This document shows positions 16,027 to 20,104 of a DNA stretch of 32,000 bases, one piece after another (positions within the stretch are counted from its first letter, which is position 1; each line of letters opens with the position of its first letter). The DNA is from Candidatus Heimdallarchaeota archaeon. GTDB taxonomy: Archaea > Asgardarchaeota > Heimdallarchaeia > Heimdallarchaeales > Heimdallarchaeaceae. Where the stretch lies: the NCBI GenBank assembly GCA_030668875.1, contig DAOVER010000014.1:30001-62000 (forward strand). Direction: 5' to 3'. The notes below the pieces were generated by a model. It had not been told where the DNA came from. It made no database searches and saw only the letters and a list, made by a program, of their open reading frames with translations. Both the position numbers and the translations under genes were made by a program.

Positions 16027-17436
16027 TTGATGACGATGATGGTTGTAGAACACCTTTCAAAAGAAAAACATAATTCTTTAGATTGGAAGCAGAATACTGA
16101 CATTGTTACAATACAAGTATTTGAGATTAGTTTGAATGGAAACCAAGATCAACTCACAAATCTGTTAACAGAATTGAAGTCAAAAAACGTCATGTTCACT
16201 CTGAAAATAACAAAAAGCAACCTCTTTCTTTTGATTTATTCTTTGAACAATTCAAGAAACACCAACAAAGAAACTGGCTTGATAAACTATTTTGTGCAAA
16301 CTTATTCTCTCAAGGATACAGTTAATGCAGAGGAATTTTTCATTCAAAATGTGAAGAAAGTAGTTCAAAAGGATAATATTCTACAATTCTTTCAGGAAAA
16401 TGGAAAACAGTCTTATACACTAGCTTTTTTGCTTTCCTCAATAGATTCAGACTCAAATAGTTTTTCTAAGCGTTTTACTAATTTTACAACTAACCTTGTG
16501 AAAGCTGATATATTCTCAATAATTATTTCTTCTATCCCTTCTATTGACAGAACGGCATCAAAAAACTCAAAGTGGGCGTTAATGCTTCTTGCTCAAGATG
16601 ACAACCGTATTCAGATAGAAAAAAAGGAAGAAACATTTCATCGCTTCCTTAATGCGAATTCATCGAAACTAAATTGTAAATTGTCATATATAACAAAGAA
16701 AGAATTCGTGAGGCATAAAACAAATTTTAGATATCTTGTTCCTTGGCATTATCTTAAAGGTGAATTTACAGATAATGTTGAGATAAACAAATTGCTAAAA
16801 ATTGATCACCCCTCTCTTAATCCAGCAACAGGACATTGCACAAAAACACTTAGTAAAAACCAATCTCCTCCAGTTCAAGAAAAGCTAAAAACCAAGGAAG
16901 ATCAAGTGGTTAAACAACCCTTTCCTTCTGTCAAAGCTTCAAAATCTAACAAACACATTTCTAATCCAGTTTTTGCTAAAGTAGAGAAAAAATCATACAC
17001 AAAAAGAATAAAGAGGGACAACTACATGGTAAGTAATTTAGATGATATTTCAATTCCAATGCCAAAAACAGTGAATGTTGTTTTTGATCTAGAGTATTTA
17101 AAGGTAAGAATTAGTAAGATGTTTAAAGATTTCGAATTTAAAGAAACAGTGATTTTTGAGGATAATTTTGATCTGGTTCTTAGAAAAGGATCCTTTTACA
17201 TATTTACTAAATTCTATAAGGAGATTCTAAATCAAGCTGAAGCCTACAAAATTATTGAACATTTAGGTAGCATAGCTGGGTTAAGGAACCAATTTTTATG
17301 CATAATAGTAGCTGATAATATAGAAGAGAAATCTATGAAGATTCTAAATGAGTTCAATGTGCTTCATTTAACTTTAAGCGATGTTTTGCTTGAGGATACG
17401 CTTAAAAGCAAGATTTATAATACTATCTTAGCCTAG
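16027..17436 (+). CDS. hypothetical protein with Lys/Pro/Ser-rich linker and C-terminal PD-(D/E)xK/Mrr-like alpha/beta domain
   Basis: 469-codon ORF. The C-terminal segment FDLVLRKGSFYIFTKFY...LCIIVAD...FNVLHL has the beta-beta-alpha-beta pattern of restriction-endonuclease-like folds. Domain call is by eye. Confidence 0.55.
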   Translation: MMTMMVVEHLSKEKHNSLDWKQNTDIVTIQVFEISLNGNQDQLTNLLTELKSKNVMFTLKITKSNLFLLIYSLNNSRNTNKETGLINYFVQTYSLKDTVNAEEFFIQNVKKVVQKDNILQFFQENGKQSYTLAFLLSSIDSDSNSFSKRFTNFTTNLVKADIFSIIISSIPSIDRTASKNSKWALMLLAQDDNRIQIEKKEETFHRFLNANSSKLNCKLSYITKKEFVRHKTNFRYLVPWHYLKGEFTDNVEINKLLKIDHPSLNPATGHCTKTLSKNQSPPVQEKLKTKEDQVVKQPFPSVKASKSNKHISNPVFAKVEKKSYTKRIKRDNYMVSNLDDISIPMPKTVNVVFDLEYLKVRISKMFKDFEFKETVIFEDNFDLVLRKGSFYIFTKFYKEILNQAEAYKIIEHLGSIAGLRNQFLCIIVADNIEEKSMKILNEFNVLHLTLSDVLLEDTLKSKIYNTILA

Positions 17437-17592
17437 AAAATAGACTGCTTTTCTACCCCCATTTGTTTATGATGCTGTATATAGTTTCTGTGGATAACAC
17501 AACTAGAAAAACTGGGGGAATGGCGGTTTCTTTCTTGTTGTCTTTTAGTATGTTCTTACTCTTCTAAGTATGACTTAATCGAGTGATGAACA

Positions 17593-17664
17593 ATGATGAA
17601 ACAAGTATATGACCCCGAACCTGGCGACGATGATATAGGACCACCATTGTGGTTTCCTAATTAA
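17593..17664 (+). CDS. small peptide ORF MMKQVYDPEPGDDDIGPPLWFPN (23 aa)
   Basis: GAGTGA SD 6 nt before the ATG, matching the SD spacing of rpl18e and rpl2. Locally GC-richer than its flanks and followed directly by a T8 run. Confidence 0.55.
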   Translation: MMKQVYDPEPGDDDIGPPLWFPN

Positions 17665-17825
17665 TTTTTTTTCTTAATCTATTTTTGATAGATAGTTTAT
17701 ATCAAAGATTCCTAATTATTTATTACCCTAGTTTATATATGAAATGTCGGATTAATTTATAGATAACTGTAGCACATGTGCATTGAAACAAAATAATTGT
17801 GTAATAAATCAGTTTTCAAGGAAGT

Positions 17826-19414
17826 TTGGTGAGTGTTGTGTTGGATCCTAATCTATGGAATAAAGTCAAATTAGTTAAAACAAAGGAAGATTTAAGATGT
17901 TTTATTGATGTCTTGAGAATTATTGCAGCTAATGAAAAATCAGAAGAAGTAAGAGAGCTCATTAATGAAACGATTAAGAAATCTCTAGAAATTGAGGATG
18001 GTATTTCTCGTATTCATCTGTACAAATTGGAAATAAAGCAGGTTTTTCATCAAATTACAGAATTACCTAAAGCTGAGAAAAAACTAAAAGAAATGAAAAA
18101 CAGTCAATTGAGCGAAATTACAAAGATGGTTTAATTCTTAGCCTTTCAATTGAATGGGGAATTGAAAAACTAAAGGGAAACAAGGAGGATAGTAAAAGAG
18201 CCATTACTCAATGCATGACTCTGTTAGAAAACAATAATGCACGCGATGAATATATCTATCATATTTGCAGATACATTTATGCAACTGAACAGTGGATAGA
18301 AGAACACAACTACCAATGTTCAAGCATCCTTGAGGAGCTTATTCCTTATTTTCATCGAAAAGGTTTCCACAGAAGCATTGCACAAATTCTAGGAATATTG
18401 TCAATTATATATCAACACACTCAAAATGAAGCAAAAGCAAGTTATATAAGCGAACAGTTATTTAGCAATAAATATCAAATTAATCAACAGTCTGATGATT
18501 TCCAAGTAATATCTTATTATTTGGCTGGTGTAGGGAAATTATTAGGTCACAATTTGAAACAAGCAGAGAATCTGTTTAATGAATCTTATGTCTTGTTAAA
18601 TAAACAACTACAGCAGAGTAGTTACTACTCTTATTATTACATTAGATTGTTATCGCATATGGCGACTGTTCAAGCTCTGCAAGGTAAAATTGCTCTTTCA
18701 TATGGAAATATTGGGAAAATTGAAAAATTACTTGAAGATGATTTCTTTTCAAAAAATATGGAACCATATAGCAAGAAACAAGTTCCACACTCTTTGAATT
18801 TAGTCAAATTCTATGTAAAATCGCGGTTTTATGGCTTTAAAACAGAGAACATTCAACAACTTATAGGACAGATATGTAGAGGAATTGAAGGTAATTATAG
18901 TGATTCAATCCTTCTCAGTGAATTCATTCTGAATGCAGAATTAAATAAAAAACTGCTAGAAAAACTAATTGAATCAAATAATGCAAGCTTACTACGAATT
19001 AAACACATCATAGAATATATGTTACTAAAATCACAGAACAATAATGAAGATGTTGTCGATTCTTATACAAATGCTCTGAATAGAAAATTGAAGACTAAAA
19101 GGATTACATTTATTGAACGAGCATTTGCTAAACTTCTACTTGCTCAAGAACTCTTTAATAGGTAAAAATATTCAGAAATCACCCCTCTATTGAAGAAATA
19201 CGAGAGCAGGCTACAGCGAATTGAAGTCTTGGAAATGCGGGTTTTTATGGAAGCTTTCATCCAAGTAGGAGCGTATAAGAACGGAGATCCTCTTGGTCCA
19301 GCTTTACAGTATATGGCAATAAAGAAATGTAGAGATTATGGGTTCTCTAGATTGGAAAACAAACTGCTAGATTACTTACAACTACAGCGAAAGGAGATTA
19401 CAAGAACAATATAG
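17826..19414 (+). pseudogene. disrupted ~530-codon alpha-helical repeat (TPR-like) protein gene
   Basis: ORF 17826-18134 overlaps a -1 frame that is open from 18077 (…ERNYKDGLILSLSIEWGIEKLKG…) and continues into ORF 18215-19165. A single TAA at 19163-19165 is followed in the same frame by KYSEITPLLKKYE…GDPLGPALQYMAIKKCR… up to 19414. Confidence 0.75.
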
Positions 19415-19666: not shown

Positions 19667-20104
19667 TTGTATTACAGAAGATTATCAGTCATGAAGAAAA
19701 GAGTTGTTATTATGGAGGCAAAATCTAAGCTAATAACATCGTATATTGCTAGTATTGTTAAGAAATACTTGCCGAAAAACGAGGAAATTATCCACAGCGG
19801 CTTATTCCTGTTGTCTACGAGAGAAGAACAATTAAAAATTCCAGATTGGTATTATAACGGATATTCAGTAATTTCAGAAACTGTATCCAGTTATCTCCAA
19901 ACTCTTTGCATTGATAAGGCTCTTACATTCACAAATGATGGAATGTACTTGTTTAGAGATGATCAAAATACAATTTCAAGTGAAGACATAGAAAAGGCTG
20001 TTTCTACTGTCAATAATATGCTACCTGATTATGAATCAGGAATAAAAATAGTAAAAGAAGCAAATAGAGAGTTTCAATTGAAACATATTGGCGCTGTAAG
20101 ATAA
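19667..20104 (+). CDS. hypothetical protein
   Basis: 145-codon ORF with ordinary protein composition. A downstream ATG (19691 or 19712) may be the true start. Convergent with the HD gene. Confidence 0.6.
   Translation: MYYRRLSVMKKRVVIMEAKSKLITSYIASIVKKYLPKNEEIIHSGLFLLSTREEQLKIPDWYYNGYSVISETVSSYLQTLCIDKALTFTNDGMYLFRDDQNTISSEDIEKAVSTVNNMLPDYESGIKIVKEANREFQLKHIGAVR

Follow-up and report, generated by a model that had tools for sequence, protein, structure and literature searches.

In Firmicutes and their phages, TPR receptors of the cytoplasm are known to read gene-encoded peptide ligands. The Rap-Phr pairs, which belong to the RRNPP systems of Bacillus, plasmids and phages, consist of a stand-alone TPR receptor without a DNA-binding domain and an adjacent small peptide gene whose product is bound extended in the TPR groove, and they occur as many insulated paralogous pairs per genome that were diversified by duplication. 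The locus analyzed here resembles them in each of these traits (groove binding as a prediction), but its host is an archaeon, its receptor has no detectable sequence homology to Rap, and this receptor is about 150 residues longer and carries a highly conserved C-terminal extension. While phr is located downstream of rap and overlaps it, the peptide gene is found here upstream of the receptor gene, with its own putative promoter and terminator; in contrast to Phr, the peptide has no Sec signal, is apparently not processed, and is predicted to be bound over about 20 residues instead of 5–6. The AimR-AimP and NprR-NprX systems share with this locus the TPR peptide-sensor fold over about 310 residues and the presence of specificity residues within an otherwise conserved peptide, but mature AimP and NprX have 6–8 residues and are cut from secreted precursors, whereas the archaeal peptides are apparently unprocessed. 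A literature search on RRNPP or quorum-sensing peptides in archaea or Asgard archaea returned no description of peptide-TPR pairs.

Two further groups are close in other respects. The SHPs and the leaderless communication peptides of RopB/Rgg systems are likewise short (8–23 aa), lack a classical signal sequence, are encoded beside a TPR-type cytoplasmic receptor, and have distinct peptide 'codes' that match distinct receptors; those peptides are hydrophobic and their receptors are transcription factors of Firmicutes with an N-terminal HTH (PMC10518010). The peptides described here, in contrast, are rich in proline and acidic, and searches of their receptors revealed no HTH. Kinesin light chain likewise binds acidic linear peptides containing Trp or Tyr (W-acidic or Y-acidic motifs) in the concave surface of a TPR solenoid, but these motifs are parts of large cargo proteins and not free gene-encoded micropeptides, and the likeness is one of recognition, with no homology claimed (PMC6214655).

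The window, i.e., the whole 32,000-nt stretch of DNA that was analyzed (G000:C9:30001-62000), belongs to a MAG of 3.2 Mb in 99 contigs, and the proteins encoded in it have their homologues in Candidatus Heimdallarchaeota/Heimdallarchaeaceae MAGs. A preliminary description, made from the letters alone, had reported a 23-aa ORF at 17593-17664 with a Shine-Dalgarno (SD) motif, a T8 run directly after its stop codon, no signal sequence in its product, and a helical-repeat gene downstream on the same strand. The ORF was found again when the frame was re-read and when profile and DNA searches recovered a family of copies; the SD-like motif matches the GTGA-type motifs that precede the window's ribosomal-protein genes by 5–8 nt, the T8 run is where it had been placed, and the absence of a signal sequence holds for all family members. 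The downstream gene (17826/17838-19414) does encode a helical-repeat protein on the same strand, but it is broken into three pieces. At a probability of roughly 0.72, we read the ORF as a genuine acidic micropeptide gene, a member of the cognate ligand family of the stand-alone TPR proteins of about 528 residues encoded downstream, with which it would form a Rap-Phr-like module. The features of the locus are as follows:

17521-17592, plus strand: putative promoter and 5' leader block (alignment of 12 copies and consensus of 152 copies; roles assigned from position and archaeal promoter rules)
17521-17526, plus strand: degenerate form, reading TGGCGG, of the TGTCA(G) motif, an element strongly conserved in the family
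17527-17542, plus strand: pyrimidine block (copy alignment)
17543-17551, plus strand: TATA-like TTTTAGTAT (copy alignment)
17569-17574, plus strand: TATGAC, which is TAAC in the family consensus (copy alignment)
17581-17589, plus strand: SD-like GAGTGATGA, 3 nt before the ATG
17593-17664, plus strand: micropeptide gene, 23 codons and TAA; product MMKQVYDPEPGDDDIGPPLWFPN, core YDPEPGDDDIGPPLWFPN
17665-17672, plus strand: T8 tract directly 3' of the stop codon, a likely archaeal oligo-T terminator
17732-17739, plus strand: TTTATATA, candidate TATA box that would let the receptor gene be transcribed on its own, proposed from sequence only
17826-19414, plus strand: cognate TPR receptor paralogue, a pseudogene (about 529 codons on read-through; 45% identity to the intact paralogue P0001)
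17826-18134, 18215-19165 and 19190-19414, plus strand: the three receptor pieces
18096-18100, plus strand: A5 run, site of the frameshift (A6 in a minority contig of sequencing run X3 restores the frame)
19163-19165, plus strand: in-frame TAA at a site that is Lys in the family (AAA to TAA; read-through and family alignment consensus)

The flanking genes at 16027-17436 (plus strand, 469 aa) and 19667-20104 (plus strand, 145 aa) had no Pfam match at E 0.01.

In the own genome, 12 copies of the peptide gene were found by tblastn and blastn, each an open frame of about 23 codons: one in the window, five at 3.4–6.0 kb of C9, and six at 77–99 kb of C95. A scan of every frame of 12–70 codons in the 3.2-Mb genome with a peptide profile gave exactly 12 matches, which were the same copies. 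All of them adjoin paralogues of the helical gene, being located upstream on the same strand of a gene for an all-helical protein of about 528 aa, and about 150 distinct copies were collected from related Heimdallarchaeaceae MAGs. The family thus defined consists of genes of 18–26 codons with the core YDPxxGDxxIxPPxWxP; its peptides are hydrophilic, and the acidic window peptide has G at p11, L at p14, F at p16, and N in the tail. The GPP triplet noted in the preliminary description is present in the window peptide but is a minority form in the family (p11=G in 11/73 members), where PP alone is invariant. One look-alike of the core, YDPEDDDPPYRWYP, is located in the first extracytoplasmic loop of a 1060-aa FtsX-type permease (G000:C38:30999-34178, minus strand); given its different spacing and a tblastn E value of 0.45, it is probably a chance resemblance.

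Coding constraint was assessed on copies defined by DNA, as an initial codon-position test had used a regular expression in which the invariant residues were fixed and was therefore partly circular. With the 12 own copies as the basis of an nhmmer profile that uses DNA only, loci of other genomes were searched, and 119 copies were recovered in 55 foreign loci; a handful of these copies were broken. Summed over the 17 core codons of 109 distinct DNA-defined copies, the entropy was 9.5, 9.4, and 24.0 bits at codon positions 1, 2, and 3, respectively. At the Pro, Gly, Asp, and Tyr codons the variation was confined to the third position (for Pro, all four synonyms are used, with positions 1 and 2 fixed), and the variants observed were Y to F or H, W to Y, and in-frame insertions of 1–2 codons. 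Because the third codon position is far more variable than the first and second, these data show that the peptide gene is under coding constraint. The conserved DNA might otherwise have been taken for a non-coding repeat or small RNA whose frame is open by chance, as the non-coding upstream block is as conserved as the ORF and the ORFs are missing from protein collections; against this stand the threefold periodicity of substitution, indels in multiples of three, and an open frame of 18–26 codons kept in about 105 of the 119 DNA-defined copies, while the chance of an open 23-codon frame is about 15% (calculated from a composition of about 31–33% GC), which makes the probability of a non-coding origin negligible. 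The ORF at 17593-17664 is confirmed as a real gene and not a chance frame. When 10 of the peptides were searched for in a collection of 15 billion proteins, none was present, hence the peptide genes are unannotated; such absence from protein databases is expected, since gene callers apply length cut-offs.

In archaeal transcription, the TATA box is located about 26 nt before the start site, and termination occurs at oligo-T. The DNA similarity of the window copy to the other copies spans 17483-17685 and thus reaches beyond the ORF on both sides. The upstream consensus of 152 distinct copies reads, 5' to 3', TGTCA, TTTnTTTCTT, the TATA-like TTTTAATA, TAAC, AGTGATGA, and ATG, with the TATA-like element about 48 nt and TAAC about 24 nt before the ATG, and this promoter architecture is common to all paralogues. 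Downstream of the stop codon, a run of five or more T occurs within 47 nt in 130 of the 152 peptide genes (86%), compared to 16% of random 47-mers. Each peptide gene therefore looks like a self-contained mini-gene with its own putative promoter block, SD, and oligo-T; as a self-contained unit, it would probably be expressed and regulated separately from the receptor. A scan for sigma-70 promoters and hairpin terminators gave nothing above shuffled sequences (such models do not apply to archaea), and a search for direct or inverted repeats around the window cassette yielded nothing convincing.

The linkage between the two genes was counted for distinct full-length TPR genes of the main family with at least 400 nt of upstream DNA, in loci taken from genome and metagenome collections and from related genomes. 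Every one of these 78 receptors is preceded on its own strand, at a distance of up to 900 nt, by 1–3 peptide genes (one in 45, two in 22, and three in 11 cases), after 67/70 TPR genes in a first, smaller set. The peptide ORF and the TPR gene are 70–200 nt apart; a small number of peptide genes are orphans or convergent to the receptor gene. The helical family itself comprises 177 clusters at 90% identity, all from Heimdall-type MAGs, whose members are named hypothetical or weakly TPR, and an exhaustive profile search among 1.84 billion sequences recovered 105 representatives at E 1e-3, the weak ones being generic TPR proteins. Within the phylum, it was encountered in a single family (f1), i.e., in 16/20 genomes there versus 0/180 in the 26 other families sampled; by genus of f1, it was present in 22/23 (g1), 2/2 (g10), 1/1 (g11), 0/1 (g12), and 0/2 (g13) genomes. 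A divergent TPR branch (G000:C19:49581-51134, plus strand, as well as L151 and L152; about 550 aa and about 230 bits to the main profile) is devoid of YDP-type peptides and is instead preceded, about 150–260 nt upstream on the same strand, by another conserved ORF of 29 codons (MVHTPEKTKVMKKHKNVMIPRYLDQ...), which shows conservative changes in three genomes. The micropeptide plus TPR architecture may thus extend to a second peptide family.

The AlphaFold model of P0001 (alignment of 72 sequences; pLDDT 91.3, pTM 0.89) is all-helical, with 29 helices arranged as a TPR superhelix. An exhaustive structural search placed Rap phi105 with its peptide (8rte_B, Z 17.8) and RapI (4i1a_B, Z 17.4) on top, followed by an APC subunit (Z 16.5), NprR with NprX (4gpk_A, Z 16.3), Pins (Z 16.0), AimR (5zvv_A, Z 15.0), and RapH (Z 14.1). 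The RRNPP matches span residues 17–382 (approximately) of P0001, and the alignments begin after the HTH of NprR and AimR and at residue 10–14 of Rap. In this group, the effector part is an N-terminal HTH (PlcR, NprR, PrgX, Rgg, AimR) or, in Rap, a 3-helix bundle by which a response regulator is targeted. The RRNPP proteins rank first, but by only 1–2 Z units above APC and LGN-type TPRs, and helical repeats generically reach about 13–14; since other TPR proteins come within 1–2 Z of Rap, the modeled fold alone does not single out RRNPP. A Foldseek search against the PDB gave only generic TPR matches with low TM scores (apo NprR at rank 41), and a shape search in the ESM Atlas led to TPR sensor domains of a generic kind, which in bacteria are joined to kinases and cyclases. 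At the sequence level, Pfam recognized TPR_12 in 26/72 members and TPR_MalT in 15/72, and found no HTH or enzymatic domain in the receptors, while a profile of the 72 members compared with all PDB chain sequences matched no RRNPP chain at E values up to 10. The most conserved part of the receptor is its last 100 residues or so.

Binding was modeled by co-folding intact P0001 with the 31-residue ORF form of its proximal peptide, using separate, unpaired alignments. The median ipSAE was 0.77 (0.77, 0.02, and 0.82 in the individual runs) versus 0.02 for the best control, judged against a mark that is reached by 58 of 80 solved complexes and by 2 of 110 mismatched pairs; the contacts agreed between runs by at least 17%, and the partner had a pLDDT of at least 33, its own fold being uncertain. 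In the model, the conserved core (peptide residues 12–31) extends through the groove over repeats 1 to about 9, with the Trp against residues 108/111/147/150 and the next variable residue against 67/70/104/108/146. The predicted contact residues are a mix of invariant and highly variable positions, and they are on the whole more conserved than the rest of the receptor (1.56 vs. 2.03 bits, p 2e-4).

Co-variation was evaluated as APC-corrected mutual information (MI) in 66 pairs of receptor and proximal peptide, and it is independent of the co-fold, in which the alignments were unpaired; its statistics ignore kinship among paralogues, the pairs being phylogenetically dependent. Predicted contacts accounted for 14 of the top 40 MI pairs, against a background of 10% (p 2e-5), while in a first MI test (raw normalized MI, all contacts) only p16 had been significant. 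Predicted contacts stand at the top, namely tail-67, p16-104/67/70/108, p8-318, p14-183/179/180, p10-150, p11-266, p4-382, and p5-425. From the N-terminal peptide positions to the C-terminus, the receptor column with the best co-variation shifts monotonically, starting near residue 400 and arriving near 67 (Spearman -0.86 between receptor residue and peptide position, p 7.5e-9). Antiparallel threading matches this order, whereas the linkage between the peptide gene and the receptor gene's 5' end is unable to account for it. Together with the co-fold, this predicts that the peptide binds the TPR groove with cognate specificity.

The variable positions can be written down as a nearly one-to-one code. 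At receptor residues 63/67/70/104/108, W-F-P-N corresponds to EKFSG, W-H-P to GLES(F/Y), W-R-P to ESENY, W-S-P-x to DRYQH, and W-T-P to ESEYY; at 179/180/183, PP-L/M-W corresponds to RSQ, PP-A-W to HGM, and PP-G-W to KGH; at 266, T-PP goes with N266 and L/G-PP with Y266. These modules recombine freely, and the modal signature of the pair's own code was present in 43/61 pairs, compared to 18.8 (maximum 25) in shuffles. The broken pair of the window, which had been left out of the code data set, obeys the code as well, its receptor residues KKFSG, RSQ, and Y266 matching the F-N, L, and G of its own peptide.

The same data bear on a proposal of the preliminary description, according to which the ORF could be a stalling leader peptide that controls termination at the T-tract. 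As a cis-acting leader, it would stall ribosomes on PP-x-W-x-P-stop and so set termination and hence read-through into the TPR gene. Its invariant PP and W, and the P that is last or next to last before the stop codon, resemble arrest and termination-stall peptides such as TnaC and CMV uORF2, and the T-tract following the stop in 86% of the copies and the placement of the ORF on the same strand, 70–200 nt upstream of the TPR gene, would also suit a leader. A peptide acting in the ribosomal tunnel, though, would not have variable residues that co-vary with spatially ordered residues of a receptor groove; tandem sets of 2–3 copies, each with its own putative promoter and terminator, orphan and convergent copies, the poor conservation of GPP, and a TATA-like box between the peptide and receptor genes also speak against a leader, which we regard as very improbable.

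The state of the window receptor was judged from contigs of four marine-sediment DNA runs (X1–X4) that cover the region. A look-up of RNA data sets listed none for the region or for the peptide gene by itself, a result without bearing on expression. The A5 form is the dominant one; in X3, a minority contig has an extra A behind 18095 at a depth of 6.8 of 38, together with A>G at 18115 and 18126 and C>T at 18142, whereas no extra A was observed at 18096-18100 in X1, X2, or X4. The A6 allele gives a reading of 529 codons in which a single TAA is left at 19163, and no variant of this TAA (19163-19165) was seen in the four runs. As the minority contig of X3 has A6, an allele with an intact frame in that part of the receptor still circulates. 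In the dominant population, the window receptor has therefore been inactivated recently and is a pseudogene next to an intact peptide ORF, and receptor copies with internal stops are common in related genomes too. The promoter of the window peptide may also be decaying, as its TGTCA(G) has become TGGCGG. Judged from its sequence, the window pair is thus in decay, with a polymorphic 1-nt deletion and an ochre codon in the receptor, TGTCA lost, and the peptide ORF retained.

The neighborhood of the cassettes was surveyed by clustering 492 neighboring ORFs from all loci. The commonest neighbor of cassette clusters is an Orc1/Cdc6-like gene, judged by its N-terminal sequence (G000:C95:74717-75940, minus strand, and 30 collected loci), so that the clusters seem to occupy a conserved place on the chromosome, which may be close to a replication origin. 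Divergent to the cassette pair of C9 there is a gene for a membrane-anchored P-loop protein of more than 935 aa with a GRGKT motif (G000:C9:6196 to beyond 9000, plus strand; L017:6196-9000), HerA/FtsK-like by eye. Two cassettes have between them the genes of an FtsX-type permease of 603 aa and of an ABC ATPase of 287 aa (G000:C95:84971-87665, minus strand; L018:10972-13666), with homologues of the permease in 19 and of the ATPase in 12 collected loci. This pair might be an exporter; given the synteny of the loci, however, its closeness to the cassettes may have no significance.

This survey is also where a second proposal of the preliminary description can be weighed, namely that the ORF is a RiPP-like precursor. 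In such a system, the invariant Tyr, Trp, or Pro would be modified, and the TPR protein would be the scaffold or would serve in recognition. Short genes that resemble precursor genes, are present in many copies, and encode invariant aromatics, and an FtsX-type ABC transporter recurring near some cassettes are what such a system might look like. No recurrent modifying enzyme was found among the clustered neighbors, i.e., no radical-SAM, YcaO, LanC-type, prenyltransferase, or peptidase gene; the neighbors that do recur (Orc1/Cdc6, a pyrophosphatase, PEPCK, a small cupin-like protein, and the ABC pair) point to synteny, the TPR family has no catalytic domain, and the peptides have no leader/core organization. 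On this basis, a RiPP precursor is very improbable as well.

The remaining proposal of the preliminary description, a peptide ligand of a TPR sensor, is the one favored here, by the recurrence of the peptide gene upstream of the receptor paralogues (78/78), the third-position-biased variability, the variable peptide positions that track predicted groove contacts, and the predicted groove binding, obtained with the intact paralogue P0001; these were also the kinds of evidence by which that description had suggested to check the locus. Starting from the family, linkage, coding constraint, fold, predicted binding, and co-variation as established computationally, we infer separate transcription, switching, and output as follows. 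The peptide gene would be transcribed apart from the receptor gene, and the unprocessed core, which begins shortly before YDP, reaches the C-terminus, and has about 20 residues, would lie extended and antiparallel in the concave TPR groove. The invariant peptide residues Y, D, G, D, PP, W, and P would meet invariant groove residues, e.g., Y146 and Q314, while four or five variable peptide positions would be read by variable groove residues: W-x-P and the tail by 63/67/70/104/108, PP-x-W by 179/180/183, and x-PP by 266. Because the variable positions would be read in this way, up to about 10 pairs per genome could be mutually insulated. Peptide occupancy would switch the receptor, as in Rap-Phr and other RRNPP pairs, and since the receptor has no enzymatic or DNA-binding domain, it presumably acts on a protein partner, perhaps contacted via the highly conserved C-terminal 100 residues.

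Whether such a peptide would have to be a signal can be asked from its sequence and from the arrangement of the genes. As an obligate small subunit, clamp, or antitoxin-like neutralizer of the TPR protein, it would act only inside the cell, which agrees with a hydrophilic, acidic peptide without signal sequence and with a whole core that is predicted to be bound without processing. A small acidic gene upstream of a larger partner is also the arrangement of type II toxin-antitoxin pairs, and insulated co-evolving pairs, frequent pseudogenes, and orphan peptide genes are typical of toxin-antitoxin families too. Nevertheless, a conserved promoter block and a T-tract belong to each peptide gene in place of translational coupling, up to three different peptide genes accompany one receptor, the TPR-only protein has no toxin-like domain, and peptide genes survive beside dead receptors, as in the window; in addition, with the same promoter architecture in all paralogues, different inputs do not explain the diversification. 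We thus consider a purely intracellular subunit or antitoxin unlikely.

Taking the peptide as a ligand of its TPR sensor, a more far-reaching and tentative possibility is a cell-to-cell pheromone or kin-recognition system, in which leaderless acidic peptides of 2.5 kDa would be exported, imported, and read by up to 10 orthogonal cytoplasmic receptors; on our estimate this is less probable than its opposite, though more so than the subunit or antitoxin. The peptides of RRNPP systems are exported, usually processed, and taken up again by an oligopeptide permease. Orthogonal types behind identical promoters are the pattern of pherotype systems. Export might proceed through the recurrent FtsX-type ABC transporter and uptake through an Opp-type permease, and the receptors would all act on one shared partner by way of the conserved C-terminal domain. 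The own genome contains at least 17 Opp/Dpp-type binding-protein genes over the cut-off, which, like the recurrent ABC pair, is only permissive for the export reading. The hydrophilic nature of the peptide and its missing signal sequence argue against export, and the peptide has no processing site; leaderless communication peptides provide a precedent for unprocessed signals without signal sequence (PMC10518010).

With regard to classification, the system works like RRNPP but has neither the homology nor the host range (Firmicutes, plasmids, and phages) by which that group is defined, and for these two reasons it is not considered a member. The finding bears on regulation or communication in Asgard archaea, on the recognition of short linear motifs by TPR solenoids, a dominant mode in eukaryotic cell biology, and on the biology hidden under the length cut-offs of gene callers. 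As the specificity code can be read from sequence, synthetic peptides and recombinant receptors allow a direct test of the system although the organisms have not been cultured, and the orthogonal pairs could supply parts for the design of synthetic peptide sensors. If the pheromone reading is true, this would be, as far as we found, the first peptide quorum-sensing system in Archaea, in the lineage closest to eukaryotes.
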